This document shows positions 2,664 to 50,409 of a stretch of DNA of 64,000 bases, in pieces. Under the pieces are notes generated by a model. That model searched no databases, was not told the origin of the DNA, and saw only the letters and a program-made list of their open reading frames with translations. Source of the stretch: an uncultured Sutterella sp. (GTDB lineage Bacteria > Pseudomonadota > Gammaproteobacteria > Burkholderiales > Burkholderiaceae_F). How positions within the stretch are numbered: the first letter of the stretch is position 1; each line of letters opens with the position of its first letter. The stretch is taken from positions 6,853 through 70,852 of the forward strand of contig UQUS01000001.1 in the NCBI GenBank assembly GCA_900544335.1, given 5' to 3'. A program made the position numbers and the translations under genes.

Positions 2664-2671
2664 GTAGGTCC

Positions 2672-3466: not shown

Positions 3467-3513
3467 GTCCCGAGCGCTCAATACGTCACGTTTTTTTCAG
3501 GGTCATTGCAGGC

Positions 3514-5372: not shown

Positions 5373-5382
5373 CCAGTGTCCT

Positions 5383-6030: not shown

Positions 6031-6147
6031 AAAACATCCTTCTCCAGTATCGTTTAGGCCACGCAATCATAGCTTTTTCTATCGCCCGGAAAAGCAAATT
6101 TGCTAGAGTGTTGCCCGTTGTTTGTTTTGTGGCTAGGAGAAATAGCG

Positions 6148-7440
6148 ATGACCGTACGGGTGCTGACCGGTATTAACACAACGGGAACGTTGCATTTAGG
6201 GAATTACTGCGGAGCGATTCGCCCCTGCATTCAGGCGTCTCACAAGCCCGATGTGGAAAGCTTCTTTTTTATGGCGGACTTGCACGCCCTGATTAAGTGT
6301 CAGGATGCTGACCGCATTGAAAGAAGTCGCATGCAGATTGCCGCGAGCTGGCTTGCGGCGGGACTCGATCCCGACCACTGCACCTTTTATCGACAAAGCG
6401 ACATTCCGGAAATTCCGGTTTTGAACTGGCTTTTAAATTGCGTCTGCGCCAAAGGGCTGATGAATCGGGCGCATGCGTACAAGGCGTGCGTTGAGGCCAA
6501 TGCCGCCGCCGAGCTCGACCCCGACGCCGGTGTCTCGATGGGCCTATTTTGCTATCCGGTTTTGATGGCTGCCGACATCCTGATGTTTAATGCCAATCTT
6601 GTCCCTGTCGGTCGCGATCAGATTCAGCACTTGGAGATGGCCCGCGATATCGCCACGCGCTTTAATAACTTGTACGGGCGCGGAAAAGACTTCTTTGTGC
6701 TTCCGTACGAACAAATCGACGAGCACGTGTCCATCTTGCCGGGCTTAGACGGACGCAAGATGAGTAAGAGTTACAACAACGTCATTCCGCTTTTTGAGGG
6801 CGGACGTGTTGCGCTTGAAGAAGCCATCAGCCGCGTTGTGACCGACAGTCGCTTGCCCGGAGAACCCAAAGACCCGGATAGCACGTCGCTTACGCAAATC
6901 TATGATGCCTTTGCCACGGACCAAGAAAAAGCCCTGTTCCGCGAGGAACTTCGCGACGGTCTCGGTTGGGGCGAGGCCAAGAAACGGCTGGTTGCCCAAA
7001 TCGAAAAGGAAATCGGACCGATGCGAGAAAAGTATGCGTTCTTTATGGCGCATCCTCAGGAGCTTGAAGATATCTTGCAGGCTGGCGCGAAAAAGGCGCG
7101 TCGCTTGGCAACGCCCTTCCTCGTAACGCTCCGTGAGGCTGTGGGTTTGCGGCAATTTCATGCCGTCGGAGCCACCCGAAAAGGCAAAGTTTTACCTAAG
7201 AAAAAGGCCACGGCTGCCATTAAGCAATATCGAGGAGAGGATGGGAAGTTCTATTTCAAACTGACCGATTCCGCCGGATGTGTGTTACTGACCTCGCATC
7301 CCTTTGAGAGCGGCAAAGAGGCCGGAATGGCTGTCGGGCAACTCAAACAAGGGAAACTGCAGGACGTTCTGACGCACGTTGTATTGGCCGACGGCGTGAC
7401 CGAAGAGGCGGTGCGACAGGCCTTAGCGGAACTTGCCTAA
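6148..7440 (+). CDS. trpS: Tryptophan--tRNA ligase with a C-terminal YegP/DUF1508-like extension
   Basis: TGxLHLGNY (HIGH-type) and KMSKS motifs. About 330 aa of synthetase is followed by ~90 aa ending KFYFKLTDSAGCVLLTSHPFESGKEAGMAVGQLKQ, which resembles the YegP family. The start is ATG 6148 with an AGGAGA RBS, not the ORF-track start at 6100. Confidence 0.9.
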   Translation: MTVRVLTGINTTGTLHLGNYCGAIRPCIQASHKPDVESFFFMADLHALIKCQDADRIERSRMQIAASWLAAGLDPDHCTFYRQSDIPEIPVLNWLLNCVCAKGLMNRAHAYKACVEANAAAELDPDAGVSMGLFCYPVLMAADILMFNANLVPVGRDQIQHLEMARDIATRFNNLYGRGKDFFVLPYEQIDEHVSILPGLDGRKMSKSYNNVIPLFEGGRVALEEAISRVVTDSRLPGEPKDPDSTSLTQIYDAFATDQEKALFREELRDGLGWGEAKKRLVAQIEKEIGPMREKYAFFMAHPQELEDILQAGAKKARRLATPFLVTLREAVGLRQFHAVGATRKGKVLPKKKATAAIKQYRGEDGKFYFKLTDSAGCVLLTSHPFESGKEAGMAVGQLKQGKLQDVLTHVVLADGVTEEAVRQALAELA

Positions 7441-7467
7441 GAAAGACCGAGCAGAATCGGTTGCGCG

Positions 7468-7506
7468 GCCGAAGGTCCCAGTTTCGGAGCCTTCGGCTGA
7501 TTTTTA
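7468..7506 (+). terminator. rho-independent terminator after trpS
   Basis: gccgaagg / ccttcggc is a perfect 8-bp stem (7468-75 / 7490-97) followed by tgaTTTTTa. Confidence 0.6.
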
Positions 7507-7581
7507 TCAGAGGTCCTAGGGAAAATCCCAGAGGGTAATGTGCGGCGCGCAAGACAAATTCTTGCTACAGTACGACGTGTT

Positions 7582-7752: not shown

Positions 7753-9123
7753 ATGGAAAAGATGCCCTACAAGACCTACCTGGAAGAAAATGAGATTCCG
7801 GCAGCGTGGTACAACCTGCGGGCAGATATGAAAAATAAGCCCGCTCCGATGCTCAATCCGGCGACGTTAAAGCCCGTGACAGCAGCGGATTTAACGCCGG
7901 TTTTCTGCGAGGAACTCGTTTCTCAGGAGTTAAACGTCACAGATCCGTGGATTGATATTCCCGGGGAGGTCCTCGATTTTTATAAGATGTACCGCCCGTC
8001 TCCCTTGATTCGTGCGTATTGCTTGGAAAAGGTTCTGGGAACGCCGGCGAAGATTTTCTACAAATTCGAAGGTCAAAACACGTCGGGAAGCCACAAACTT
8101 AACTCGGCGATTGCTCAGGCTTATTACGCCAAAAAGCAGGGACTTAAAGGCGTGACGACCGAAACCGGTGCCGGACAGTGGGGTACGGCTCTTTCGATGG
8201 CCTGTGCGTACTTGGGGCTTGACTGCAACGTCTTCATGGTCAAGTGCTCGTATGAACAAAAGCCGCAACGCAAAGAAGTGATGCGTACGTTCGGCGCCAC
8301 CGTCACGCCTTCGCCTTCAAATACGACGAAAATCGGGCGCAAGATGCTTGAGGAATTCCCGGGCACGACCGGCAGTCTCGGTTGCGCGATTTCCGAGGCT
8401 GTCGAGTCCGCCGTCAGTCGCCCCGGGTATCGGTATGTGCTCGGGTCGGTCCTTTCGCAGGTGTTACTGCACCAAACGGTTGTCGGTCTTGAGTCGCAGG
8501 CTGCGTTGGCTCGCTACGGTTTGACTCCGGACATCATCATCGGATGCGCCGGGGGCGGATCGAATCTCGGGGGACTCATTAGCCCCTTCGTCGGTGACAA
8601 GATCAAAGGAAAGCTCGATAGCCGCATCATCGCCGTGGAACCTGCCAGCTGCCCGAGTCTGACACGCGGACGCTACGCCTATGACTTTTGCGATACGGGT
8701 CGCGTGTGCCCGCTCCAGAAGATGTATACGCTCGGATCGAGTTTTATTCCGTCGGCCAATCACGCCGGAGGACTGCGTTACCACGGTATGAGCGCGATTA
8801 TTTCGCAGCTGTATGCAGACGGGCTGATTGAAGCGCGAGCGGTCGAACAGACCTCGGTTTTTGCCGCTGCGGAAAAATTTGCCCGCTGCGAAGGGATTCT
8901 CCCGGCTCCCGAAAGCAGTCACGCCATTAAGGTTGCAATTGACGAGGCCTTACGGTGCAAAGAAACCGGCCAAGAGAAGGTCATTCTATTCTGCCTGACG
9001 GGAACCGGGTACTTTGACATGTCGGCCTACCAACGCTTTAACGACGGTACGATGAGCGACACGATTCCGACCGATGCCGAGCTTAAGGCCAGTTTTGACA
9101 AAATGCCCAAAGTGAACCTGTAA
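7753..9123 (+). CDS. trpB: Tryptophan synthase beta chain, TrpB2-type (stand-alone, long form)
   Basis: 456 aa; PLP-lysine motif GSHKLNSAI; long N-terminal extension typical of TrpB2; AAGGAG RBS. No trpA is adjacent. Confidence 0.85.
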   Translation: MEKMPYKTYLEENEIPAAWYNLRADMKNKPAPMLNPATLKPVTAADLTPVFCEELVSQELNVTDPWIDIPGEVLDFYKMYRPSPLIRAYCLEKVLGTPAKIFYKFEGQNTSGSHKLNSAIAQAYYAKKQGLKGVTTETGAGQWGTALSMACAYLGLDCNVFMVKCSYEQKPQRKEVMRTFGATVTPSPSNTTKIGRKMLEEFPGTTGSLGCAISEAVESAVSRPGYRYVLGSVLSQVLLHQTVVGLESQAALARYGLTPDIIIGCAGGGSNLGGLISPFVGDKIKGKLDSRIIAVEPASCPSLTRGRYAYDFCDTGRVCPLQKMYTLGSSFIPSANHAGGLRYHGMSAIISQLYADGLIEARAVEQTSVFAAAEKFARCEGILPAPESSHAIKVAIDEALRCKETGQEKVILFCLTGTGYFDMSAYQRFNDGTMSDTIPTDAELKASFDKMPKVNL

Positions 9124-9173
9124 GGCTTTTTTCAAGAGAGAGTGCGGCGCCGACTCCAAGGCGCCGTACTCAC

Positions 9174-10058
9174 TTACGCATCGCGTTGGCAAAGTTGCCG
9201 ATGCCGCACGACTGTCAGGACCTTTGCCTTAAAGGCCTTAGCTAAGTGTTCGGCGATATAGACGCTTCGATGTTGTCCGCCCGTACAACCGATTGCCACC
9301 GTCAGGTAATGGCGGTTTTGGCTTTCGTACGAAGGGAGCCACTTGTCGATAAACGCCGTGATGTCCGAGAGCATGTCTTGGACTTGCGACTGGGAGTCGA
9401 GATAATTAATCACGGGTTTATCTAGGCCCGTAAGCGGTCGCAAGGCTTCGTCGTAAAACGGGTTCGGGAGGTTGCGCACATCGAAAACCAAATCGGCGGC
9501 GACGGGAATGCCCTTTTTAAACGCAAAGCTTTCAAAGTCAAGCGTCATCGAAGAGGGCGGTATATCGGCAAACTCCGTGACCCAACGCCGCAGTGTGTTC
9601 GGTAAAACGCGCGTTGTATCAATGATGTGAGCTTGTTCGGCAATCGGCGACAAGAGGTCCCGTTCCAGATGAATGGCTTCCGAAAGCGTTCGTCCGCTTT
9701 GACTTTCGGGACGAATCGAGAGCGGGTGCCGGCGGCGTGTTTCGGAAAAACGCTTCACGAGTTCGGTGTTGGAGGCCGTCAAAAACAGGATGCGCACATC
9801 GATTTTTCGAGCGCGCAGTGCCGCCAGACAATCCGTAAATTGCTCTGAGTTTGTCAGCCCCCGCGCATCGACGGCAACGGCAATGCGATCGATGCCGCGG
9901 CTGTGTAACTTTTCCAGAACGGGCAGTAAGAAATCAAGCGGCAGGTTATCCAAGCAATAGTAGCCGCTATCTTCCAATTGGCGAATGGCGACGGATTTAC
10001 CCGATCCCGAAAGCCCCGTCACAATGACAACGCGCAACTCGGACGAGGTGTTTTCCAT
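9174..10058 (-). CDS. rapZ: RNase adapter protein RapZ (YhbJ)
   Basis: P-loop VVIVTGLSGSGKS near the N-terminus; start at MENTSS (10058) with an AAGGAG RBS; 4 bp after ptsN. Confidence 0.9.
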   Translation of the reverse strand: MENTSSELRVVIVTGLSGSGKSVAIRQLEDSGYYCLDNLPLDFLLPVLEKLHSRGIDRIAVAVDARGLTNSEQFTDCLAALRARKIDVRILFLTASNTELVKRFSETRRRHPLSIRPESQSGRTLSEAIHLERDLLSPIAEQAHIIDTTRVLPNTLRRWVTEFADIPPSSMTLDFESFAFKKGIPVAADLVFDVRNLPNPFYDEALRPLTGLDKPVINYLDSQSQVQDMLSDITAFIDKWLPSYESQNRHYLTVAIGCTGGQHRSVYIAEHLAKAFKAKVLTVVRHRQLCQRDA

Positions 10059-10062
10059 GAGG

Positions 10063-10545
10063 TTACTCCTTTCCTGCAGCATCGTCAGAGGGCTCCCAAG
10101 CCGTAATGATTTCCAAAGCCTGCTTGGCCGAGGTCGCTGTCATGAGGGTACTTCGAGCGGTTTTATCGCGCAAAAAACCGGCTACATCCGACAAAATGGC
10201 CAGATAGGCGTCCGGGTTACTTTCCGGAATGGCCACGGCAAAAAATAGTTGCGCCGTCGTCTGTCCCGGTCCGTCGTAATCAATCGGTTGCTTGGTTCTC
10301 ACTAGGCACAACCCGGGGTCGACGATTCCGTTAATACGGGCATGAGGAATACCGGCACGACACCCCAAACCCGTCGGACCGAGTTTTTCTCGTGCAATCA
10401 GGGCATCGAAAACACTTTGTGCCGGCACTCCGGAAGAGACGGCCAGAATTCGGGAAACCTCTTCGAAAAGGCGTTTTCGGCTCAAGACATCTAAGTCAAG
10501 CAGGATGTTTTCACTCGGATTTAATAACGGAGCAATGTGATTCAT
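10063..10545 (-). CDS. ptsN: PTS IIA-like nitrogen regulatory protein PtsN (EIIA-Ntr)
   Basis: 160 aa PTS EIIA type-2 fold with a conserved His region; canonical position after rpoN. Confidence 0.85.
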   Translation of the reverse strand: MNHIAPLLNPSENILLDLDVLSRKRLFEEVSRILAVSSGVPAQSVFDALIAREKLGPTGLGCRAGIPHARINGIVDPGLCLVRTKQPIDYDGPGQTTAQLFFAVAIPESNPDAYLAILSDVAGFLRDKTARSTLMTATSAKQALEIITAWEPSDDAAGKE

Positions 10546-10629
10546 CGTCAGGCAACTTCAAACAAACTTTCGAAGAGTATATACGTCCGAGAGGGCGAAC
10601 GATTTTTTCGGCCGAGCCAACGACAACAA

Positions 10630-12036
10630 TCAAAGGCGAAACCGTTCGTTTTTCGGGGGGATTTTGTCCATTTCCCGATATTTGGCTACGGTGCGACGTG
10701 CGATGCGGATTCCCTGCTCGGCAAGTTGTTGCGTCAGTTGGGCGTCGCTCATCGGACAGGCCGGATTTTCCTCGGCAATCAGCTGGCGAATGCGCTCCCG
10801 AACGACGGTACTCGAGAGCAATTCGGGAGCATCGGTCGAGGGAACGGTGCCGGAGAAAAAGTGCTTTAACGGGAAAAAACCGAACGACGTTTGGATAAAT
10901 TTGCCCGCCACGGCACGGCTTACGGTGGACTTGGAAATGCCGAGACTTTCGGCAACCTCTTGCATTCCGAGCGGCACGAGCGCTTGGGGACCCTCGGCAA
11001 AAAATCGGCTTTGTCGCTTAAAAAGCGCGCGTCCGACTAAGAGCAATGTTTTCTTACGCCGCGTCAGAGCACTGATAAAAAGGCGCGCCTTTTGGGCATA
11101 AGGCTCCATCGCTTCGCGCTCGGGGGCCTGTTTCACCTCTTTGTGCAAAAGGGCATAGGTGGGAGCGTCAAAAACAAGGCGCTCGGCGGCATCGTCCTGA
11201 AAAATAAGCGTCAGGACTCCGTCCTTTTTTTCAACGGTAAAGTCAGGCAAAACGGCGTTGTCCGTCAGACCGGCAAACCGGGAGCACGGATGCGGATCTA
11301 AAGACCGTAAGATACACAGTGCGGCACGGACATCGTTCTCGTCTCGGTGAAGCCGCCGGGCAATCGCGGCCTTGTCGCCTTTAAGCAACAGGTCTGGGCA
11401 TTCCTTAAGAATGAAATCGGCTAGCTCTCGGGTTGCCGTGAATGCATCGTTCGGTGCCGCTTTTAGTTGCAACGAGAGTACTTCAAGCGCAGAGGTGGCG
11501 CCGACTCCCGTCGGATCGAGGCTTTGCAGCGTTTTTAGGGCTTCTTGCCAGTCTTTTTCGGAGGCTGAAATCGGACAGGTACTTGCCATCGATTCCAAAG
11601 TCTCTTCGAAGAGCCCGTCTTCATTGAGGTTCCCGGCAAGCCACTGAACAAGATCCTTTTTGTCTTCGGGAACGGTCAGAAGACGAATCTGTCTTGTCAG
11701 ATGCTCTAAAAGCGTCGTCGGGTAGCTTAAGAAATCCGTCGGGTCGACCGTTAGGTCTTCCGAGGGTGTGTTCTTCCAAGTAATCAGCGACGTTGTTCCC
11801 GGAAAGTCGGCCGATACGCCGACCGGTTCGTCAAACGGGGTTTGCATCGGCTCGGACAATGGCGCCGTCTCGACCTCTTTGGCAAGCAAAAACGGATTTT
11901 CGTCGAGTTGCCGACGGATTTCGGCAGCCAATTCTTCGCGACTTAATGTCAAAAGCTTGGCAGTTTCCAGAAGCAACGGCTTCGGAATTTGCTTTTGTTG
12001 CCCGGCAACGTCGATATGTAAAGACGATACCGCCAT
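10630..12036 (-). CDS. rpoN: RNA polymerase sigma-54 factor RpoN
   Basis: 468 aa; C-terminal RpoN box ARRTVAKYRE and HTH. Confidence 0.95.
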   Translation of the reverse strand: MAVSSLHIDVAGQQKQIPKPLLLETAKLLTLSREELAAEIRRQLDENPFLLAKEVETAPLSEPMQTPFDEPVGVSADFPGTTSLITWKNTPSEDLTVDPTDFLSYPTTLLEHLTRQIRLLTVPEDKKDLVQWLAGNLNEDGLFEETLESMASTCPISASEKDWQEALKTLQSLDPTGVGATSALEVLSLQLKAAPNDAFTATRELADFILKECPDLLLKGDKAAIARRLHRDENDVRAALCILRSLDPHPCSRFAGLTDNAVLPDFTVEKKDGVLTLIFQDDAAERLVFDAPTYALLHKEVKQAPEREAMEPYAQKARLFISALTRRKKTLLLVGRALFKRQSRFFAEGPQALVPLGMQEVAESLGISKSTVSRAVAGKFIQTSFGFFPLKHFFSGTVPSTDAPELLSSTVVRERIRQLIAEENPACPMSDAQLTQQLAEQGIRIARRTVAKYREMDKIPPKNERFRL

Positions 12037-38431: not shown

Positions 38432-39445
<1,014 letters not shown>

Positions 39446-40093
39446 TTAGACCTCTTCAAATTTGTCGGGGGAGTTGAATCGCCCTTCGGGATCAATCCAA
39501 CCTAAAAGGGTTTGCGTCAGTTCCTCGGAACCCTCTTTTTTCAGACCGGAAAAAAGTTGTACCGAAACGTGATCTCCTGTTTTCTCAGCCCGAGCGCGAG
39601 CGATTCGAAGGGTATTGGCACGTTCACTGCGATTGAGTTTGTCGCATTTATTTAAAAGCCACAGTTGCCGAATGTGAGTTTTGCCGGAGAAAAAATCAAT
39701 GAGCCAGTCATCGGCCGGCATGAACGGGCGCCTGGCGTCCATCACAAGCACAATGCCGACAAGCGAGGGCCTCTTGTCCAGATAGCCTCCGATTAAATCG
39801 GCCCACTGCGCCCGTGTGTCGGGAGAAGCCTTCGAGTACCCGTATCCGGGAAGATCCACAAGAAAACCCACGTCGTCTTCTTTTTGTGTGAGGCGGAAAA
39901 AGTTAATGAGTTGCGTGCGGCCCGGCGTCTTGGAGGCAAACGCCAATTGGCCTTGCCGCGTCAGAACGTTAATCGTCGTGGATTTGCCGGCATTGGAACG
40001 CCCGGCAAAGGCAATTTCTGGTAGACCCGGGGGCGGGAGCTGATCGAGCTTGGCAGCCGAGATAACAAAACGGGCTGAATCAAATAATTTCAC
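39446..40093 (-). CDS. engB: Ribosome biogenesis GTP-binding protein EngB (YihA/YsxC)
   Basis: G1 motif [13 protein letters not shown] start at 40093 overlaps the mnmA TGA stop as GTGA, with AAGGAA 8 nt upstream. The ORF-track N-terminal extension (to 40258) lies inside mnmA. Confidence 0.85.
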
Positions 40094-41196
40094 GGAGTCG
40101 TTCCTTTGTCGCTTTGGAGACAAACGGTGTCGATAAAGCCGCCCCCGAGACAAATATCCCCGGAGTACAAAACGGCGCTTTGTCCCGGTGTCGGAGCCCA
40201 TTGCGGGACCGGGAAAGAGAGTTCTAAGAGGCCGCCTTCCGAGCGGACGATGCGACACGGACCGTCCGGGGCTCTGTAGCGGGTTTTGACCGAGACGGAA
40301 TCGGTAAGACTCGGCGCCGTGCCGCTAATCCAACTCGGGGTTACCGCTGTTAGGCTCACGGCTAAAAGATGCGGATTGTTGTGGCCCTGTACGACCCATA
40401 GCGTGTTGGTCGCTAAGTCTTTATGGGCTACGAACCACGGCTCGTCGCTGCCGTCCCGACGGCCTCCGATGCCGATGCCCCTGCGCTGACCGAGCGTGTA
40501 AAAACTCAATCCCACATGGTTGCCGATGACCTTTCCCTGTTCGTTTTTAATCGGACCGGGTTGTGTCGGTAGATAACGGCTGAGAAACTCCCGAAACGGT
40601 CTTTCGCCGATAAAACAGATCCCGGTGGAATCTTTTTTTTGAGCGACGGGAAGGCCGATTTTAAGCGCCAGAGCACGCACATCGCGCTTGAACATATCCC
40701 CGACGGGAAAAATGGCTTTGGAGAGCTGTGCTTGAGTCAGGCGATGCAGAAAATAACTTTGGTCCTTTCCCGGATCTGTGCCGCGTAGCAATTCAAACAG
40801 GCCCTCTTTTTCTCGTACGCGACAATAGTGGCCCGTGGCGATGTAATCGGCCCCCATGGACATAGCGTGGTCGAGGAAGGCAGCAAATTTAATTTCCGAA
40901 TTGCACAGGACATCTGGGTTGGGCGTGCGCCCGGCGGCGTACTCGGTTAAAAAGTTGGAAAAGACCCGTTCTTTGTACTCTTTGGCAAAGTTCACGGCCT
41001 CCAAATCAATCCCGATTACGTCGGCCGCGCTTGCCGCATCGATGAAATCACGCCGGCTCGAGCAGTATTCCGAGTCATCGTCATCCTCCCAATTCTTCAT
41101 AAATAGGCCGATGACCTCATAACCGGCTTGTTTGAGTAAATAGGCAGAGACGGCGCTATCAACCCCGCCGCTCATGCCGATGACGACTTTACGCAT
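40090..41196 (-). CDS. mnmA: tRNA-specific 2-thiouridylase MnmA
   Basis: PP-loop SGGVDSAV; 368 aa. Confidence 0.95.
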
Positions 41197-41274
41197 AGGA
41201 AAAAACTCAAAAGAAAAAACCGATAGGGCAGATTATAGAATTGCCTGCAGCGCATCTGATTTTGACCGGACTAA

Positions 41275-41313
41275 AGACAAAGACGGAACCAATTCCGGTT
41301 CCGTCTTTGCGTA
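41275..41313 (-). terminator. rho-independent terminator after dcuB
   Basis: agacggaacc / ggttccgtct is a perfect 10-bp stem (extendable by flanking A/T pairs to ~12 bp); T-run on the minus strand. Confidence 0.6.
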
Positions 41314-41387
41314 ATCACTTTGCGGGTTGCTTTTCGAAAAGTGGTACTTAATGTCCTTTCAGTACCTTGGAATCATTGAGCAACCGA

Positions 41388-42743
41388 TTAGATGTACCCG
41401 TACAGGATGCCGAGCATGTAGCCGACGACGGTAGCCGTACCGACACCGATCAGGCCGGGCGCGATGAACGAGTGGTTAATAACGAACTTGCCGATGTGCG
41501 TCGTGCCAGAGCGGTCAAACGTCAGAGCCGCAAGGTCAGACGGATAGGTCGGCAGAATGTAGTAGCCGTAAGCCGCCGAGGCCATCGCCAGAACGACTCC
41601 CGGTGGCGTGCCGATCTGCAGGGCAACCGGGACGACAATAGCCACGGACGCAGCCTGAGAGTTCACCAACTTAGAAACGAGCAGTAGCACGATACCGAAG
41701 GTCCACGGAGCCGCCTTAACCCATTCGGTCAAGCCTTCTTTCAAGGCAGCCAAGTGGTTCGAGAACATCGTATCGGACATCCAGGCCACGCCGTACACGG
41801 AAACGATGGCGACCATACCGGCGATAAACACGGACGTGGAGCTCACCTTCTTAGGCGGCTTGCAGAACGCAAGCATAAAGAAGGCGGCCGTAATCATGAA
41901 CATCTGAATGACAAGAGTCATCGAAAGGCGTTTCGTGCCGAAAAGCGGACGCAGTTCCTTGACAGCGCCGAGAAGAGCGACCATCGCGACGGCAAACAGG
42001 AAAATCCACAAACTGCCCCACTGCTTCTTATTGAAGTGGACGCCGATTAAGGTCATCGTTTCACCGTAAACGTACTTACGCTGTTCCGGATCGGCAATCA
42101 AAGCCTGAAATTTCTCGTCCTTGTCCAAATCCTTGCCGCGACACACGGAGAACGTACCGACCATAAACAGACCGACGATAGCGGCGGGCCAAACAATAAA
42201 GCCCAAGTGGAACATGTTAAAGGGCTGACCGGCAATCAGATAGTTGCCCTTTTCCATGAAGCCGACCATCGAGACGAAGGCCACGGCCGCGGGCGAGCAC
42301 ATCACACCCATCTGGGCCGCAATCGTGGAAGCCGCCATCGGACGTTCCGGACGCACACCGTTTTTAATCGCGACGTCGTAGATAATCGGGAGCATCGTGT
42401 AAACGGTATGACCCGTACCGCACAGAACCGTCAGGAACCAGCAAAGATACGGAGCCAAGTAGCAAACAAAGCGCGGATGTTTACGCAGGAGCTTTTCAGC
42501 AACCTGCAGTAAGCAGTCCAAACCGCCGCATGCCTGTAGTGTCGCCGAGGCGCACACCACAGCCAAAATCGTGAGAATCACGTCGACCGGCGGTTTGCCG
42601 GGCTTCATGTGGAAGAAAAAGATGAAGATGATAAGGCCGACGCCGCCGATCATACCGAGAGTAAAACCGCCGCGCGGGGCTGCGTAGAACAAACAGGCCA
42701 AGAGTACGCATAGCTCTAGCCAAAAGTCAAGTCCTAAATCCAT
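41388..42743 (-). CDS. dcuB: Anaerobic C4-dicarboxylate transporter, DcuA/DcuB family
   Basis: 451 aa; the N-terminus and topology match DcuA/B. The A versus B subtype is not distinguishable by eye. Confidence 0.85.
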   Translation of the reverse strand: MDLGLDFWLELCVLLACLFYAAPRGGFTLGMIGGVGLIIFIFFFHMKPGKPPVDVILTILAVVCASATLQACGGLDCLLQVAEKLLRKHPRFVCYLAPYLCWFLTVLCGTGHTVYTMLPIIYDVAIKNGVRPERPMAASTIAAQMGVMCSPAAVAFVSMVGFMEKGNYLIAGQPFNMFHLGFIVWPAAIVGLFMVGTFSVCRGKDLDKDEKFQALIADPEQRKYVYGETMTLIGVHFNKKQWGSLWIFLFAVAMVALLGAVKELRPLFGTKRLSMTLVIQMFMITAAFFMLAFCKPPKKVSSTSVFIAGMVAIVSVYGVAWMSDTMFSNHLAALKEGLTEWVKAAPWTFGIVLLLVSKLVNSQAASVAIVVPVALQIGTPPGVVLAMASAAYGYYILPTYPSDLAALTFDRSGTTHIGKFVINHSFIAPGLIGVGTATVVGYMLGILYGYI

Positions 42744-43094
42744 AAAAACTTCCCCTTCGTAGTTAGGTAAAAAAGGACGAGTGTATGATGGCGCATTTGT
42801 AACAAAAAGTGAATATTAGAATAACAAAAATTTGATTAAAGTAAAACATTCGTTCTATCGGAGGAAACCGACTGAGGGAAATCTACCCGAAAGGAGTAGG
42901 AAAAAGTCCTTATATTTGAAGGAGATGCGCGAAAAACGCGGGTTTTCGGACGGTAAACCATCGTTTTCGTTGTTCTGTAAAATAATCAGAAGTTTTAGGT
43001 CGATTGCGCCGATTGCGGTAATCGAAGCCTCATAGGTATTTGTTAATCGAAATGCAAGGACAGACGGCATAGTGCCGCCGGAAAGGAGATCAAA

Positions 43095-44735
43095 ATGCCT
43101 GAATTTAAATATGCACCGATGTTTCAGGTCGGCAAAGACGACACGGAATACACGCTCATTACCAAGGACTATGTGAGTGTCGGTGATTTCGAGGGCCACC
43201 CGGTTTTGAAGGTTCAGCCCGAAGCTTTGACCGTGCTCATCAATACGGCTTTCCACAATGTGAACTTCATGCTGCGCCGTTCGCACAATGAATGCGTTGC
43301 AAAGATTCTCAAAGATCCGGAAAGTTCGGATAACGATAAATACGTGGCACTTACGATGCTGCGCAATGCCGAAATCGCTGCTAAGGGCATTTTGCCGGTT
43401 TGCCAGGATACGGGTACGGCTATCGTTCACGGTGAAAAGGGTCAGTACGTGTACACGGGCTTTTGCGATGAAGAAGCTATCAGCAAGGGCGTTTACAAGA
43501 CCTACACCGAAGATGCATTGCGCTATTCTCAGAACGCTCCCTTGAGCATGTACAAGGAAGTGAACACCAAGTGCAATCTGCCGGCTCAGATTGATATCGA
43601 AGCGACCGAAGGCAATGAATACAAGTTCCTTTGCGTTGTCAAGGGCGGCGGATCGGCCAACAAGTCCTATCTGTACCAAAAGACCAAGGCGATTTTGAAT
43701 CCGGCCGCTTTGGTGCCCTTCCTGATCGAACAAATCAAGGATTTGGGCACGGCAGCCTGCCCGCCGTATCACATCGCCGTTGTCGTCGGCGGAACCTCCG
43801 CGGAAAAGACGATGCTCACGGTCAAGCTCGCTTCCACGAAGTTCTATGACAACTTGCCGACAACCGGTGACGAAACCGGTCGTGCCTTCCGCGATTTGGA
43901 ATTGGAAAAGACCCTTCTGGATGCTGCCAACAACATCGGACTCGGTGCCCAGTTCGGCGGCAAGTACCTGGCTCACGACGTGCGCGTCATTCGCCTGCCG
44001 CGCCACGGTGCCTCGTGCCCGATCGGTATCGGCGTGAGCTGCTCGGCCGACCGTAACGTCAAGTGCAAGATCAATGCCGAAGGTCTGTGGATTGAAAAAC
44101 TCGATGACAATCCCGCAAGCTTGATTCCGGAAGAATTCCGCAAGGAAAGCGAAGGCAAGACCGTCAAGATTGATTTGTCGATGCCGATGGATAAGATTCG
44201 TGCCGAACTTTCGAAGTACCCGGTTTCCACGCGTGTGTCGCTTACGGGCACCATCATCGTCGGTCGCGATATTGCGCACGCTCGCTTGAAGGAACGTCTT
44301 GATAAGGGCGAGGGTCTTCCTGATTACATCAAGAATCACCCGATTCTTTATGCGGGTCCGGCTAAGACCCCGAAGGGCTATGCCTGCGGCTCCATGGGCC
44401 CGACAACGGCCAACCGTATGGATCCGTACGCCGATCCCTTCATGGCAGCGGGCGGCTCATTCGTGATGATTGCTAAGGGCAACCGTACGCAGGTTGTGAC
44501 CGATGCTTGCAAGAAGTACGGCGGCTTTTATCTCGGGACCATCGGCGGCGTCGCTGCGGCGCTTTCCGAAGCGGCCATTAAGAGCATCGAATGCATTGAG
44601 TATCCGGAGCTCGGTATGGAAGCGATCTACAAAATCGAAGTCGTGGACTTCCCGGCCTTTATCCTCGTTGACGACAAGGGTAACGACTTTTTCAAGCAAC
44701 TCAAGCCCCGTTGCTGCTGCAAGTGCGTTAAGTAA
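43095..44735 (+). CDS. fumB: Class I fumarate hydratase ([4Fe-4S], FumA/FumB type)
   Basis: 546 aa; Cys motifs CQDTG, AACPPYH and SCPIGIG. Confidence 0.9.
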
Positions 44736-44837
44736 CGCAACGCATGAGGCGGTTTTGGTAAAGTAACATCGGCCGGCGTGCCACGTGTGGCGTCGCCGGC
44801 CGAAGTGTCTTAGCGCGGAAAACTCCGAGGTGCTTTT

Positions 44838-45725
44838 GTGAGTGTGATTCAACAGAATGATTTGATTGAAAGTGTGGCCGAGGCCTTCGTGCGCATTAAT
44901 CGTGTTTGCCCGCCCGATTACGAGCAAGCGCTCAGGACGGCCGCTACGAGGGAACAGAATCCCAAACGACGCGATGCCGTTCATGGATATCTGACCGAGT
45001 GCCTTTCCGAGAAAAAAGAAGGGGAACTGATTGCCTCGGAGCCCGATATGGCTGTGGTCTTTATGCGCGTCGGGCAGGATGTGCGTTGGTCTGGATTCAC
45101 AGGGAGTCTTCAGGAGGCCGTCAGCGAAGGAATCGGTCGTGCGTGTGCGGAGTTTTCTCTTTCTTCCCCGAGCCGCGATGACGCTTTGCCGTCGTCACGC
45201 TTTACGGCAGGTCGTTCAGTTCCGGTCTTTATCCACTGGGAGCTTGTCCCGGGCGAGCAAGTTCAACTGACCGTCGCTGCTCGTTCCGGTCAAGATGAGA
45301 GTAAAACACGACTTCTGATGAAGGACCCACAGGAGAGCATTGCCGATAGTGTCCTCGCGCAATTGAACGAGCTGCGGGAGAGCTTCCGTTTTCCGTTTGT
45401 CCTCGGAATCGGCGTCGGCGGAACGGCAGAAAACGCTGTTTTAACGGCCCGGGAGTGTTTAAACGACCCCCTGAATATGGCAGAGCTTTTGGACCGCGGT
45501 CCGCAAACGGCCGTCGAAAACTTACGTACGGAAATCTTTCGGCGCCTCAATGAATTTTCCGATGATGCCGGAAGTTTTGTTCTCCGACCTCCGGTGCTTG
45601 ACGTCAAGATTCGACTGCGAAGCGATCGGTATCCGGTTTGGCCGATTTGTCTGATGCTTGAAACCGGGATCCCCCGCCGTATGCGGTTTGTTTTGGACGG
45701 GACGGGCCCCGTGTTTTTCCAGTAA
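44838..45725 (+). CDS. Fe-S hydro-lyase alpha-domain (fumarase N-terminal domain) paralog lacking the cluster-ligating cysteines
   Basis: 295 aa that can be aligned along the whole FumB N-domain (e.g. LGIGVGGTAENAVLTA vs [18 protein letters not shown]). CQDTG is replaced by EPDMA and AACPPY by SFRFPF. GTG start. Confidence 0.6.
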   Translation: MSVIQQNDLIESVAEAFVRINRVCPPDYEQALRTAATREQNPKRRDAVHGYLTECLSEKKEGELIASEPDMAVVFMRVGQDVRWSGFTGSLQEAVSEGIGRACAEFSLSSPSRDDALPSSRFTAGRSVPVFIHWELVPGEQVQLTVAARSGQDESKTRLLMKDPQESIADSVLAQLNELRESFRFPFVLGIGVGGTAENAVLTARECLNDPLNMAELLDRGPQTAVENLRTEIFRRLNEFSDDAGSFVLRPPVLDVKIRLRSDRYPVWPICLMLETGIPRRMRFVLDGTGPVFFQ

Positions 45726-45752
45726 GCCCTGTTTTAGAAACACCCAGAGACG

Positions 45753-45782
45753 AAAAAAGCACCTCAATCGCGGTGCTTTTTT
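45753..45782. terminator. bidirectional rho-independent terminator between the fumarase paralog (+) and the NCS2 permease (-)
   Basis: aaaaaaGCACCtcaatcgcGGTGCtttttt. Confidence 0.65.
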
Positions 45783-45823
45783 CATCGGGCGTTTCCCGAG
45801 GTTTTCCTCGGGAAGGCCTTGCG

Positions 45824-47122
45824 CTAGTTGAAGAAACGGTTCGCAATAAAGAGAACAGCCAGAACGTACATAAGCCAGTTGAGTTTCTTGTACTGACCGG
45901 TCACGAGCTTTAAGGCCACGTAGCTGACGATACCGAATTCGATACCGACGGCAATCGAGTAGGCAAAGGGCATCATGATCAGGGCAATCATGGCCGGGAA
46001 CAGTTCCGTCCAATCTGAGCAATCGAGATTGGCGATACCGGAAATCATGAAGGCGCCGACCATAATCAGGGCCGCCGATGTCGCGCAAGACGGCACAATC
46101 ATGAAAATCGGGCTAAAGAAGACAGCGAGCAGGAACAGGACGCCGACCGTGAAAGCCGTCAGACCCGTGCGTCCGCCTTGTTCGATACCGGCCGCACTTT
46201 CCACAAAGGTTGTCACCGTGGACGTACCGAGAACGGCACCGGCACTCGTGGCGATAGCGTCCGAGAGTAGGGCAGGACGGGCACGGGGCAAGAAGCCGTT
46301 CTTATCGAGCAAGCCGGCACGGGCCGAACATCCGACGAGGGTGCCAATCGTATCAAAGAAGTCCACGAAGAAGAAGGCAAAGACGATGACCCAGAAGTTC
46401 AGGTTCGAGAGCATCGAGAAGTCCATCTTCCAGAAAATCGGAGAGAGAGACGGAGGCAAGGAAACAAGACTCTCGGGAATCTTCGTTACGCCCAAGGGGA
46501 TGCCGACAATCGTGATGACGACCATGCTAATCAGAATGCCGCCGCGGATGCCTTTGTACTGCAGGTAGGCCATCAGAAGAACGCCAACAATCGTCAGGAA
46601 CGCCGTCCAATTGGTGAGTTTTCCGAGACCGACGAGGGTAGCCGGATTGTCCACAATGATTCCGGCGCCGCGCAGACCGATAAAGGCAATAAACAGACCG
46701 ATACCGGCAGCGATACCGACCTTAAGAGCCGTCGGAATGGAGTTGACGACCTTTTCTCGAATGCTTGTGACTGTCAGGAAAATAAAGATTAAGCCTTCGA
46801 CGAAGACAGCCGTTAAGGCAACGTGCCAGGAAATGCCCATCGTCAGGCAGACCGAGTACGTAAAGAAGGCGTTCAAACCCATGCCCGGAGCCAGAGCAAA
46901 CGGGTAGTTGGCCAAAAAGGCCATCAAAAAGCACCCGAGAGCCGCGCCCAAGCAGGTGGCAACCAAAACGGAGCCGAAGGGCATGCCGCTTTCGGAAAGA
47001 ATTCCCGGGTTAACGACAATGATGTAGGCCATTGCCATAAACGTTGTAATGCCGGCGGAGATTTCCGAGCGAACGGTCACCTTATTCTCGGAAAGCCGGA
47101 ATTGTTTTTCGAACCAAGACAT
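45824..47122 (-). CDS. NCS2-family purine permease (AzgA/PbuG-like: adenine, guanine, hypoxanthine)
   Basis: 432 aa; NCS2/AzgA signature region; AAGGAAAA RBS. Confidence 0.8.
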   Translation of the reverse strand: MSWFEKQFRLSENKVTVRSEISAGITTFMAMAYIIVVNPGILSESGMPFGSVLVATCLGAALGCFLMAFLANYPFALAPGMGLNAFFTYSVCLTMGISWHVALTAVFVEGLIFIFLTVTSIREKVVNSIPTALKVGIAAGIGLFIAFIGLRGAGIIVDNPATLVGLGKLTNWTAFLTIVGVLLMAYLQYKGIRGGILISMVVITIVGIPLGVTKIPESLVSLPPSLSPIFWKMDFSMLSNLNFWVIVFAFFFVDFFDTIGTLVGCSARAGLLDKNGFLPRARPALLSDAIATSAGAVLGTSTVTTFVESAAGIEQGGRTGLTAFTVGVLFLLAVFFSPIFMIVPSCATSAALIMVGAFMISGIANLDCSDWTELFPAMIALIMMPFAYSIAVGIEFGIVSYVALKLVTGQYKKLNWLMYVLAVLFIANRFFN

Positions 47123-47367
47123 GATGGATATTTTCCTTGAGGGAGAAAGTTAAGAAAGCAAAAAAGAAGATGGCGCATTCTAGTCCCGTAACCGGGGTTT
47201 AGTCCTTGATTGAATAGAAAAAACTGTGTTTTGCTGTTGCATTTTTTCTTAAGGGATTGCCCGGTGAAAACGCCGGGAAAAGGAATCATCCTTGCGACAA
47301 AGCGAATGGTCGTCGGGCTCTTGGGGTGCTATCCTGCAGAACTGAGTTTTGCCATAAATACAAAGGT

Positions 47368-48324
47368 ATGCAGGATTTTCTTATTCAATTTTCCGTCCAG
47401 TTCACCAAGTCCGTTCCGCTTTTTTGCTTAATCGGACTCGGATATGCCCTCGTGCGTTGGTGCGGCTTCGGAAAAACAGAAAGCAATGCGGTCGTCAAAT
47501 TTGCTTTTAATGTTTCGCTCACGGCCATGCTGTTTCGTCTGTTGGCGCAGCAATTTTTAAGCGACACACAGACGGACCCGTGTCTGCTGATTGCGTTTTT
47601 CGGGGCGTGTCTTGTGCTCCTTGTCATCTGTCGATTCGTTGCTATTCGATTTTTAAAAATCGACTCGGTCGGCGCGTCGGTTTTCGGTACGGGGTGCGTC
47701 TTTTGTAATAACGGATTACTCGGATTGCCGCTTGCCGTGGCCATGCTCGGAGACCAATACTTGCCGAGCATTGCGTGCGTGATTACCTTTAATGCCCTCA
47801 TTTTATGGACCGCCGTTTCTCTTTTAGTCGAGCAGGGCGGTCGCCGATTTACGCCGAAAAACTTCATTCTGACGGTGTTCCACGTCTTTAAAAACCCTCT
47901 GATCATTGCGATTTTCTCCGGCGTCTTGTGGAACTTCACACGCATTAAGTTCCCGTACTACATCGACGAACCCTTGCGACTTGTGGCCCAGTCGGCAACG
48001 CCCTTGTCGCTTATTGCCGTCGGTATGGGTCTAGCGGAGTACGGCATCAGTAAGGGTTTCGGAACCGGCGTGATTCTCTCGACAGTCAAACTCATTGTCC
48101 ACCCGATTGCCGTGTTTGCCCTGGCGGCCTTAATCGGACTCGGTCCGATTGAAAAGACGGCTGTTGTGTTTCTGGCCGCTTTGCCGTGCGGCGTGAACGT
48201 GTACCTGATGAGTCGGACATTTCATGCGATTGAGGCGGAAATTGCCGATGCCATGCTCATTTCCACCATGATTGCCGCCGTTACGATGCCTTTAGTTGTG
48301 ACCTTACTGCGTCAGATTCCCTAA
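47368..48324 (+). CDS. AEC-family (auxin-efflux-carrier/malate permease-like) membrane transporter
   Basis: 318 aa, ~10 transmembrane segments. ATG at 47368 with an AAAGG RBS; the ORF-track extension is non-hydrophobic. Confidence 0.75.
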   Translation: MQDFLIQFSVQFTKSVPLFCLIGLGYALVRWCGFGKTESNAVVKFAFNVSLTAMLFRLLAQQFLSDTQTDPCLLIAFFGACLVLLVICRFVAIRFLKIDSVGASVFGTGCVFCNNGLLGLPLAVAMLGDQYLPSIACVITFNALILWTAVSLLVEQGGRRFTPKNFILTVFHVFKNPLIIAIFSGVLWNFTRIKFPYYIDEPLRLVAQSATPLSLIAVGMGLAEYGISKGFGTGVILSTVKLIVHPIAVFALAALIGLGPIEKTAVVFLAALPCGVNVYLMSRTFHAIEAEIADAMLISTMIAAVTMPLVVTLLRQIP

Positions 48325-48414
48325 AGGGGAGGGAGAAGTTTCATACTTTTTTGAAAAAAGTATGAAAACTACGGTACTATCCCGTTGCCTTCCTTTTTAT
48401 GACGGAGACTTACG

Positions 48415-50409
48415 ATGGTCGCTCAAATTTGCCCCGTTTCTCGCACGGTTATCGCTCTTACGATGGGGTGCTTAACCGGTTTTTCAACAGTCTACGCGGC
48501 CGCTGAGCAAGATCTCGGCCAGGTTTTAGTGACAGCCGAGAGTGAGACTTCGCCTGCTTTGCCGGAAACCTCCTCTCTCGGAACACAAAGTAATCGCGTC
48601 AGTCGCGAGCAAATCGAGAACCAAGCCGCAACCGATATCAATCATGCGTTAACACTTATTCCCGGTGTTATGACGCGCTCTCAAACCATGATGGGCGGTC
48701 AGACAAGCCACGGCATTTATGTCCGAGGGCGGGGTGCAAGCCACCCGGGTTCGGACGTGGCAATTTACTTTGACGGCGTCCCGCGTGCCGGGGCGATTTA
48801 CGGACAGACGCTCTTTGACGGCATCAGCCTCGGAAGCGTTGAGGCTATCGAGGTTTTCAAGAGTCCGCAGCCCGCGAATTTCGGAAGCGGCTATGCGGCC
48901 GTCAATATGGAGCCGCGCAAAATCAAGCGCGCCGGTCAGGAAGTTGAAATTTCGGTCGCAGGCGGCTCGCACGAGACAGTCAATGAAGAGGTCTTTGCCG
49001 GCTATAAAAACGATCGGTTTGACGTCAGTGCCGTGCAAAACTGGGCCAGTACCGCAGGACATGTCAACCACTCGCGTGCGCAGCAGCAAAACTATTACCT
49101 CAATACCGGCTGGCAATTAACGCCGAATGAGGAAGTACGGTTTTTAGCCAACAGAACGCTCGGACAGACGCTGCAGCCCGACAAGAGGGGAGGCGCTCGA
49201 TCGGTTGACCGCTATGACACGGATACCACATTTTTTACCTTAACGCTCAATAGCCGCCGTGAGAGTTCGGAGGGGTTTCTCAAGACCTATTACAACGACA
49301 CGCAATATGACCTACTCGGCGAGCGCAAGAAAATCAGTGGTACCGTTACTAAGCTTGCTGATTCCAGACAGAGTATGAAACTGTATGGTGTCCGGGGTAA
49401 GTACAGCTGGTCTTTTGCCGAGGCGACGCGCCTGACAGTCGGCATGGATTTAGATCGTACCGAAACAACAAATAGGCAGCGTATGCAGGAAAGCGGCGCG
49501 ACGACCTACTGGGACTTTCCGACGATGACGCTCTTTTCTCCGTACGCGAGCGTCTCGTACGACTGGCAAGTCGGGGATGTTGTTGTAACGCCCTCGGTCG
49601 GACTGCGTTCTTATACGCACAGTGAATTTAAAGACGTCGTTGCCCCGCAGGCAGGTCTTGTCGTCTCCTCCGGTCTTTGGCGGTGGAATGCAAACTACGC
49701 ACGCGGCGTGAATTACCCGACTCCGGTTGCCCTGCAAGGGCTCGTTGTGCGTGGGAGGTCTCACTCGTCACAGGCGTGGGCCTCTCTTAAGCCAGAAGTT
49801 GTCGACCACTATGAGACGGGAATCGGACTGATGGTCAATCCGGAAAATGCCGTCAATCTGACCGCCTTTTACGACCGAGGACGCGATCGCTTTCGCGTTA
49901 ACATGAGTCCGAACGTGCCTCCTACCTGGAACGATCCCGTGGGGCGCTACAAGGTCGCCGGTCTTGAGGCAAGTATCCAAAAGTCCTTCGGGTCCGATGT
50001 CAAAACCTTTGCCGCCGTGACCTACATGAACGTGCGCGCAACGGATAGTGCAGGAAAGCTTTCCAAGCACCTTGCGTACTCGCCCAAGTGGCTTATTCAG
50101 GGTGGCGCGACATGGAACATCACGCACGCTTGGAAGTTATATGCCGATGCGATGTATGTTTCCGATCTTTGGAGCGGAATGAATGCTCGTCCGTCCCAGA
50201 ATTTCGGCTATTCAACGGATAAGAAACTGAAAGATTTCCTATTGGTTAATGTCAAACTTTCGCGCACATTCGAGCCGCCTCAGGGGTTGCCGAAGAATGC
50301 GGAAGTGTTTGTTTCCGTGAATAATCTGCTCAATCGGGACTATGCATGGGATGCCGGCTACCCGATGCCCGGAATTACGGCATTTGCCGGAGTGAAATTC
50401 GGTTTTTAG
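48415..50409 (+). CDS. TonB-dependent outer-membrane receptor
   Basis: Signal peptide, plug-domain motifs, and a C-terminal F after the last beta strand (GVKFGF). The TonB box was not identified by eye. Confidence 0.85.
   Translation: MVAQICPVSRTVIALTMGCLTGFSTVYAAAEQDLGQVLVTAESETSPALPETSSLGTQSNRVSREQIENQAATDINHALTLIPGVMTRSQTMMGGQTSHGIYVRGRGASHPGSDVAIYFDGVPRAGAIYGQTLFDGISLGSVEAIEVFKSPQPANFGSGYAAVNMEPRKIKRAGQEVEISVAGGSHETVNEEVFAGYKNDRFDVSAVQNWASTAGHVNHSRAQQQNYYLNTGWQLTPNEEVRFLANRTLGQTLQPDKRGGARSVDRYDTDTTFFTLTLNSRRESSEGFLKTYYNDTQYDLLGERKKISGTVTKLADSRQSMKLYGVRGKYSWSFAEATRLTVGMDLDRTETTNRQRMQESGATTYWDFPTMTLFSPYASVSYDWQVGDVVVTPSVGLRSYTHSEFKDVVAPQAGLVVSSGLWRWNANYARGVNYPTPVALQGLVVRGRSHSSQAWASLKPEVVDHYETGIGLMVNPENAVNLTAFYDRGRDRFRVNMSPNVPPTWNDPVGRYKVAGLEASIQKSFGSDVKTFAAVTYMNVRATDSAGKLSKHLAYSPKWLIQGGATWNITHAWKLYADAMYVSDLWSGMNARPSQNFGYSTDKKLKDFLLVNVKLSRTFEPPQGLPKNAEVFVSVNNLLNRDYAWDAGYPMPGITAFAGVKFGF

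Follow-up and report, generated by a model that had tools for sequence, protein, structure and literature searches.

A truncated alpha-domain homolog of class I fumarate hydratase that lacks the cluster ligands is conserved beside fumB and dcuB in Sutterella

We analyzed a stretch of 64,000 nucleotides from an uncultured Sutterella sp. (contig UQUS01000001.1 of assembly GCA_900544335.1; hereafter the window), in which a short gene that we term fumX lies directly downstream of fumB, the gene of a class I fumarase. fumX is a real open reading frame (ORF), and, judged from its sequence, its product is most aptly called a pseudoenzyme that is specific to this lineage and goes back to a fused Burkholderiales-type fumarate hydratase (FH). 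FumX is related to an enzyme family, lacks the essential residues, and is under purifying selection, a combination that defines a pseudoenzyme. The interpretation that we favor, to which we assign a probability of roughly 0.6, is that fumX is an ancestral fumarase gene that was displaced and truncated and that now specifies, at a low level, a noncatalytic alpha-domain protein, probably a homodimer that acts by protein binding.

FumX is homologous to the alpha domain of class I fumarate hydratases

Residues 11 to 280 of FumX matched the 270-position Pfam model PF05681 (Fumerase) with an E value of 8.8e-30 and a score of 104 bits, compared with a cutoff of 25. The scores remained below the functional cutoffs of the NCBIfam models PRK06246 (92.7 versus 276) and TIGR00722 (74 versus 100.65). 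With FumB, BLASTP gave 23% identity over residues 65 to 237 (E = 6e-7), and the identity in alignments of the two proteins ranged overall from 18 to 23%. A first-pass annotation of the window, made from the nucleotide sequence, had already assigned FumX to the fumarase alpha domain, and the aligned segments that it listed (AEAF..IN with TAFHNVN, and LGIGVGGTAENAVLTA) were reproduced by MAFFT.

AlphaFold2, supplied with an alignment of 39 sequences, modeled FumX with a mean predicted local distance difference test (pLDDT) score of 85.9 and a predicted template modeling (pTM) score of 0.86, and low confidence was confined to residues 111 to 125 and 241 to 250. When this model was compared with the PDB using Foldseek, class I fumarate hydratase structures were the only matches at E ≤ 1e-3. 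The top match was the alpha subunit of the M. jannaschii enzyme (7xky_A; E = 2e-18, template modeling [TM] score of 0.74), followed by Leishmania major enzymes. A profile search and a structure comparison had been proposed with the first-pass annotation as checks of the relationship, and both recovered the FH alpha domain. By sequence profile and predicted structure, FumX is a full-length homolog of the alpha, or N-terminal, domain of class I fumarate hydratases.

The cluster ligands, the catalytic residues, and the beta domain are lost

In the Leishmania major enzyme (LmFH), the [4Fe-4S] cluster is held by Cys133, Cys252, and Cys346, which correspond to Cys60, Cys182, and Cys269 of the M. jannaschii enzyme (MjFH), and the catalytic and substrate residues of the N-domain are Gln134, Asp135, Arg173, Gly216, and His334 (bioRxiv 10.1101/2022.09.03.506457). 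Further residues of LmFH, namely, Arg421, Thr467, Thr468, Arg471, and Lys491, belong by their numbering to the C-terminal domain (bioRxiv 10.1101/2022.09.03.506457). MAFFT and other alignments placed A66, R184, and T276 of FumX at the three ligand positions, and a Cys was found at these positions in none of eight FumX orthologs. The motif CQDTG is replaced by ASEPD (A66-S67-E68-P69-D70), AACPPY by SFRFPF, and NCAATRH by ETGIPRR. The catalytic residues fare no better: S67 and E68 stand in for Gln134 and Asp135, R264 stands in for His334, the equivalent of Arg173 falls into a variable loop of low model confidence around S110, and the GGGSENKS segment in the Gly216 region has degenerated to RSGQDESKT. 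All these former catalytic and substrate positions of the N-domain vary among the FumX orthologs.

The first-pass annotation had read the second of these replacements correctly and had recognized the loss of CQDTG, although the counterpart that it gave, EPDMA, is off by two residues; the third ligand loss had escaped it. Its description of the protein as cysteine-less holds for the three cluster ligands but not for the protein as a whole, which contains five Cys residues (positions 24, 55, 103, 207, and 271), C24 and C271 being invariant in the family.

FumX ends with ...FVLDGTGPVFFQ, whereas the fused enzymes run from LDG(T/S)GP straight into the linker to the beta domain. This LDGTGP boundary motif is common to FumX and the fused enzymes; the alpha proteins of two-subunit enzymes stop earlier and do not have it. 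As the first-pass annotation had stated, a partner beta domain is missing: tblastn detected no beta domain (PF05683) in the window beyond that of FumB itself, and none was present beside fumX in the corresponding loci of five genomes (L001 to L005).

FumX is thus predicted to be unable to hold a [4Fe-4S] cluster through the canonical ligands. Because these ligands are gone and both halves of the substrate site are lost, FumX is, as far as its sequence can tell, not a fumarase, a mesaconase, or a tartrate dehydratase, in line with the earlier suggestion that it is dead as an Fe-S hydro-lyase. The closest alpha-only proteins illustrate the difference. MjFH alpha (PDB 7XKY), the best structural match, is likewise an alpha-only protein of ~290 amino acids, but it possesses Cys60, Cys182, and Cys269, as well as Gln61, Asp62, and Arg102, and works with an adjacent beta subunit (bioRxiv 10.1101/2022.09.03.506457); FumX has none of these. 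Unlike this two-subunit protein, FumX has a sequence and a C-terminal motif that point to a fused ancestor. Similarly, TtdA, the alpha subunit of L(+)-tartrate dehydratase, resembles FumX in its PF05681/TIGR00722 superfamily and its alpha-only size but needs the Cys ligands and TtdB, which FumX lacks; FumX reached only 16.6 bits with the tartrate dehydratase profile NF006084 (cutoff, 365), and no beta gene adjoins it. With its ligands and catalytic residues replaced, no beta partner found, and scores below the curated cutoffs, FumX should be annotated neither as fumarate hydratase nor as TtdA.

The FumX family is small and its gene order is constant

When 1.84 billion cluster representatives were searched exhaustively with a hidden Markov model (HMM), one full-length FumX cluster (512 bits) and one fragment were retrieved. 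The next matches scored at most 216 bits, and the ligand motifs were kept in all of them. No other ligand-less members were found: the short matches P0018, P0092, and P0102 and the Clostridia alpha-subunit and Betaproteobacteria loci keep CQDTG, CPP, and C..RH. The exact FumX protein of the window was present on 158 contigs, and the cluster formed at 90% identity has 211 members, nearly all of 295 amino acids. The sole NCBI name found for a member was "hypothetical protein [Sutterella sp.]".

For each species, one genome was scanned with short peptide patterns, by which some genomes may be missed. The short form was detected in five genomes (L001 to L005), which represent three Sutterella lineages, a further uncultured Sutterella, and Duodenibacillus, and in no others. 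The gene order was the same in all five genomes, namely, sppA, hemB, engB, mnmA, dcuB, fumB, fumX, a permease gene, an AEC transporter gene, and a TonB-dependent receptor gene, with dcuB divergent from fumB and fumX and the permease gene convergent with them. The co-location with dcuB and the fumarase gene noted in the window, for which a survey of distribution and synteny had been proposed, is therefore a constant feature of the family.

These comparisons also bear on the idea, raised in part as a caveat by the first-pass annotation, that a sequencing or assembly artifact or a wrong frame hides a Cys-containing fumarase. The same frame, the same losses, and the same stop recur in five genomes of several species that were assembled independently, as well as in metagenome sequences numbering in the hundreds, and a fumarase match came from no other frame. 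We therefore exclude this explanation, whose probability is negligible.

FumX evolves rapidly under purifying selection

Of the proteins encoded at the locus, FumX evolves fastest. Across the five genomes, its identities to orthologs were 91, 76, 57, and 50%, compared with 96 to 99% for FumB and 91 to 99% for DcuB. In three unsaturated pairs, the ratio of nonsynonymous (dN) to synonymous (dS) substitution rates, calculated according to Nei-Gojobori, was 0.11, 0.10, and 0.14 for fumX and 0.01 to 0.03 for fumB. The dN of fumX was ~4- to 30-fold that of fumB. The reading frame of fumX contained neither a stop nor a frameshift in five species, at saturated dS, and the length, the N-terminus, the C-terminal DGTGPVFF, the Shine-Dalgarno (SD) sequence, and the start codon are conserved. 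Judged from these substitution patterns, FumX is conserved by purifying selection.

We consider it quite improbable that fumX is a functionless pseudogene remnant that is still open by chance. The rank of fumX as the fastest-evolving gene of the locus, the loss of a whole domain and of all catalytic residues, its weak codon bias, and "hypothetical protein" as the only NCBI name found would all be compatible with such a remnant. However, its dN/dS is 0.10 to 0.14 and not ~1, its frame has stayed open at saturated dS, and its length, both termini, and translation signals are kept; in addition, 97 positions are invariant across the FumX family, which spans down to 50% identity, and the AlphaFold2 fold is confident.

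The constraint is unevenly distributed along the protein. In a set of 28 fused enzymes, 126 positions are conserved to at least 90%; in FumX, 37 of these still have the original residue without variation, and 61 have become variable. The variable positions cluster at residues 44 to 70, 100 to 128, 150 to 156, 171 to 187, 240 to 253, and 262 to 266 and cover all active-site loops. In accordance, dN/dS was ~0.16 in the former active-site loops versus 0.06 to 0.11 elsewhere, for a partition into loops and core that was picked after the data had been seen. At ten positions, FumX has an invariant residue that differs from that of the fused enzymes (N21, C24, L64, P69, Q80, R149, N213, M273, E275, and R281); several of these residues lie beside the old cluster site, where they may occupy the cavity. 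By this pattern, FumX is selected for its fold and some surface and not for the old pocket.

The new invariant residues close to the old cluster site (P69, R149, M273, E275, and R281), together with the invariant C24 and C271, are also what would speak for FumX still being an enzyme, either as a cluster-independent catalyst with a remodeled pocket or as the alpha partner of a beta protein encoded elsewhere; the inspection for a beta partner covered 64 kb of this genome. We nevertheless regard catalysis as very unlikely. The pocket loops (the R173 loop, GGGSENK, the Cys2 loop, GIGAQGLGG, and the His334 loop) vary among orthologs and have in part low pLDDT scores, no constellation of Cys, His, or Asp is conserved at the site, a beta domain is absent near fumX in all five genomes, and the scores fall far short of the NCBIfam cutoffs for equivalogs and subfamilies.

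fumX appears to descend from a fused fumarase gene next to dcuB

A database search with FumX retrieved nine short relatives (218 to 295 amino acids; 50 to 99% identity), and the next matches were fused class I fumarases of ~500 to 516 amino acids. The best intact relatives were four fused proteins of 509 to 510 amino acids (39% identity; 212 to 216 bits), followed at 37 to 38% by those of Leptothrix, Sphaerotilus, Hydrogenophaga, and others. The fused enzymes of Burkholderiales and other Proteobacteria, composed of PF05681 and PF05683, are thus the closest relatives of FumX, with 37 to 39% identity over all 295 residues; examples are those of Leptothrix, Hydrogenophaga, and Rhodoferax and the gut Burkholderiales proteins P0011 and P0013. 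They share with FumX the N-terminal MxxIxQxDLIESVA as well as GxDVxWxGFTGS, LGIGVGGT, RGPQ..E.LR.E, and LDGTGP. FumX differs from them in that it has no beta domain, no Cys ligands, none of the Gln, Asp, Arg, and His active-site residues, and no GIGAQGLGG loop, and in that it evolves much faster. In a neighbor-joining (NJ) tree of the N-domain, the short FumX family was monophyletic with 100% bootstrap support, sat on a long branch of its own adjoining the fused clade of Proteobacteria, and lay well apart from the Clostridia alpha subunits and the FumA/B type.

The closest fused enzymes also share the divergent dcuB neighbor with the fumX locus. P0013 and P0150, the intact proteins most closely related to FumX, are encoded by genes that diverge from dcuB genes whose products are 68 to 70% identical to DcuB of the window. 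By comparison, no dcuB was found near the fused fumarase gene in any of 12 environmental Burkholderiales loci. In two loci of gut Burkholderiales with a GC content of ~49.5% (L050, positions 4127 to 7530, and L053, positions 8102 to 11530), dcuB is divergent to an intact class I fumarase gene of the fused type encoding 509 amino acids, and it is the DcuB of these loci that is 68 to 70% identical to that of the window. Genes for M20 peptidases and for a response regulator of the GerE type are found nearby, and the locus lacks a FumA/B-type gene.

Since the closest intact relatives adjoin an orthologous dcuB, we interpret fumX as a displaced ancestral gene and not as a duplication. The first-pass annotation had instead regarded it as a duplicate of the alpha domain of the adjacent fumarase, repurposed as a regulator, as a chaperone of FumB maturation, or as a C4-dicarboxylate binder. 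The two genes are adjacent on the same strand in an operon-like unit linked to dcuB, their order is strict in five genomes, both products contain PF05681, and the purifying selection on fumX would suit a repurposed copy. This explanation is nonetheless unlikely, and a recent duplication was rejected: the identity of FumX to FumB is 23% in the BLASTP alignment (18 to 23% across alignments) versus 37 to 39% to the fused Burkholderiales-type enzymes, the tree separates FumX from the FumA/B type, FumX carries the LDGTGP motif of the fused enzymes, and intact relatives linked to dcuB exist.

In the displacement scenario, the ancestral arrangement would have consisted of dcuB divergent to a gene for a fused Burkholderiales-type fumarase of ~507 amino acids. 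In the ancestor shared by Sutterella and Duodenibacillus, a FumA/B-type gene would have arrived between dcuB and the resident gene and taken over catalysis. The resident gene would then have lost its entire beta domain by a cut just past the LDGTGP boundary, as well as all three ligand Cys codons and those of every catalytic and substrate residue of the N-domain, while its product would have retained the alpha-domain fold, kept by purifying selection.

Several points weigh against this history, or against the role considered below. In the NJ tree, the sister group of the FumX family was the fused clade as a whole, and the family did not group with the L050-type sequences, which may be due to long-branch attraction. 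PurD encoded on the L050/L053-type contig is 72 to 74% identical to that of both Sutterella sp. and Burkholderia, with many gut-metagenome sequences in between, and by this protein the organism can be placed in the Burkholderiales only. A search for fumB homologs returned only Sutterella sequences that were at least 99% identical and thus pointed to no donor. As the search for beta domains was confined to the window and the L001 to L005 loci, an orphan beta gene may be located elsewhere in the genome. In the in vivo proteome tables of Sutterella massiliensis, entries are pooled by product name and FumX cannot be distinguished; its putative function is deduced from fold, selection, and gene order.

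FumX may act through protein binding

MjFH alpha alone is a constitutive homodimer that contains neither the cluster nor the beta subunit; among the interfaces of class I enzymes, none is larger or better conserved than the alpha/alpha interface (bioRxiv 10.1101/2022.09.03.506457). For these two reasons, and by analogy, a homodimer is the most likely state of FumX. It would act through protein binding, as a scaffolding or regulatory pseudoenzyme, and not through chemistry. The selection on the N-terminal helix, the strands of the central sheet, the helix pair at residues 208 to 232, and the DGTGPVFF tail suggests such a protein-binding or scaffold role, and the strict linkage of fumX with its neighbors fumB and dcuB suggests that it is connected with the respiration of C4-dicarboxylates.

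The sequence data argue against a tight stoichiometric complex with FumB, since FumB is near-invariant and highly expressed, whereas fumX evolves fast and has a weak codon bias. This also affects the roles that came with the duplication hypothesis. The conservation of FumB at 96 to 99%, with FumX falling to 50%, argues against a coevolving interface of a partner or chaperone, and the weak codon bias of fumX (effective number of codons [ENC] of 55 versus 39) argues against a stoichiometric one. Furthermore, FumX is absent from other lineages with class I fumarases, its family being a single cluster at 50% identity, and FumA/B-type enzymes outside this family's range do without such a partner. 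C4-dicarboxylate binding at the old site is improbable as well, because none of the substrate contacts of the N-domain is kept, the residues at these positions vary, and FumX lacks the half of the pocket that belongs to the beta domain.

A more specific proposal, which we put forward only tentatively and consider rather unlikely, is that FumX is an Fe-S-free "pseudo-fumarase" that Sutterellaceae have recruited into their fumarate-respiration module as a subunit with a regulatory or scaffolding function. It might, for example, modulate FumB, DcuB, or fumarate reductase or sense a metabolite through the remodeled pocket (P69, R149, C271, M273, E275, and R281). There is a precedent for such a fate in IRP2, a relative of aconitase, another Fe-S (de)hydratase, which has neither cluster nor catalysis and is kept for a noncatalytic role, the binding of RNA. 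The analogy is conceptual only, as the folds of IRP2 and FumX are unrelated and FumX is acidic, with no sign of nucleic acid binding. An IRP-like binding of FumX to the RNA hairpin upstream of its gene was considered and is disfavored, since FumX and all its orthologs are acidic (isoelectric points of 5.1 to 6.5).

Expression signals suggest a low level of FumX

The spacer between fumB and fumX contains a GC-rich stem-loop whose structure is kept in six genomes, with compensatory changes in 4 of its 10 pairs, and which is followed by a T-rich tract in L003 to L005. It occurs once in the window, and its classification as a repetitive extragenic palindromic (REP)-type repeat was therefore rejected; it is probably a leaky terminator or a 3' stabilizer of fumB that would lower the expression of fumX. 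A purine-rich SD-like sequence and a GTG or ATG start codon precede fumX in L001 to L005, and hairpins equivalent to the bidirectional terminator follow it in all of these loci.

Among nine genes of the neighborhood, fumX has the weakest codon bias (ENC of 55.4, compared with 39.3 for fumB and 40.3 for dcuB) and the highest dS. Considering this weak bias and the conserved stem-loop upstream, we infer that fumX is expressed far below fumB, by readthrough of the stem-loop. A scan for sigma-70 promoters between positions 42700 and 46000 gave no match anywhere, including the region 5' of fumB, and is thus uninformative about a separate fumX promoter.

Implications

A search of a literature library identified no paper that joins class I fumarate hydratase with the term pseudoenzyme and no description of a cluster-less alpha-only homolog. 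If the displacement reading is correct, fumX is a natural example of displacement in place, in which the incoming isozyme assumes the role of the resident enzyme, which is reduced to a noncatalytic domain that remains under selection. In practical terms, profile-based annotation could miscall FumX as a subunit of fumarate hydratase or tartrate dehydratase and inflate metabolic reconstructions of Sutterella, a common genus of the human gut, in a central pathway that leads from aspartate through fumarate to malate and succinate. FumX could also supply a stable apo alpha domain for structural work on class I fumarases. Should a regulatory or scaffolding role prove true, it would represent an unknown layer of control of fumarate respiration in Sutterella-type bacteria, and a regulatory pseudo-fumarase would parallel the aconitase-to-IRP2 transition in another hydro-lyase family. 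The reach of these findings is narrow, as they concern one small bacterial lineage.

Features of the locus

The features of the locus are compiled in Table 1. fumB ends 102 nucleotides before the start of fumX, and 98 nucleotides, including terminator hairpins, separate the fumX stop from the convergent gene of an NCS2-type permease. FumB matched PF05681 and PF05683 (E of ~1e-81 each) and the NCBIfam models PRK15390/15391 (923 bits). It has a beta domain, its ligand motifs CQDTG, CPP, and SCSAD are intact, and its gene has a strong codon bias; by its sequence, this complete enzyme is the working fumarase of the locus. The bidirectional terminator marks, as predicted from its sequence, the end of the fumB-fumX unit.

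Table 1. Positions of fumX and associated features in the window
Feature	Position	Strand	Description
fumX	44838..45725	+	Truncated class I fumarate hydratase alpha-domain homolog, 295 amino acids; GTG start, TAA stop
fumB-type (E. coli FumA/FumB family) class I fumarase gene	43095..44735	+	546 amino acids
dcuB	41388..42743	-	Anaerobic C4-dicarboxylate transporter; PF03605, E = 1e-129; divergent to fumB-fumX
Shine-Dalgarno sequence of fumX	44827..44830	+	GAGG, 7 nucleotides 5' of the GTG start
GC-rich stem-loop	44769..44803	+	fumB-fumX spacer; conserved structure
Bidirectional intrinsic terminator	45753..45782	.	AAAAAA-GCACC-loop-GGTGC-TTTTTT; between the convergent fumX and NCS2 permease genes

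Additional observations concern the genes and spacers around fumX. A second strong hairpin (positions 45785 to 45816; TTTCCCGAGG-TTTT-CCTCGGGAA) adjoins the bidirectional terminator in the gap between fumX and the permease gene and is probably the terminator of the latter. The C-terminus of FumB (residues 538 to 546; positions 44706 to 44732) reads PRCCCKCVK, with four Cys within five residues. In the Sutterella metagenome-assembled genome (MAG) that contains L003, a gene for an autotransporter of 1,159 amino acids (L003, positions 2460 to 5939) with ESPR, Peptidase_S8 (subtilase passenger), PATR, and Autotransporter domains is inserted between dcuB and fumB; the dcuB-fumB intergenic region therefore tolerates insertions. 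Finally, when positions 38432 to 50409 of the window were compared with L001, the closest genome, dS was ~0.04 to 0.05 in hemB, mnmA, and dcuB and 0.16 to 0.56 in fumB, fumX, and the permease and TonB-dependent receptor genes, a jump that suggests a recombination breakpoint near the dcuB-fumB intergenic region.

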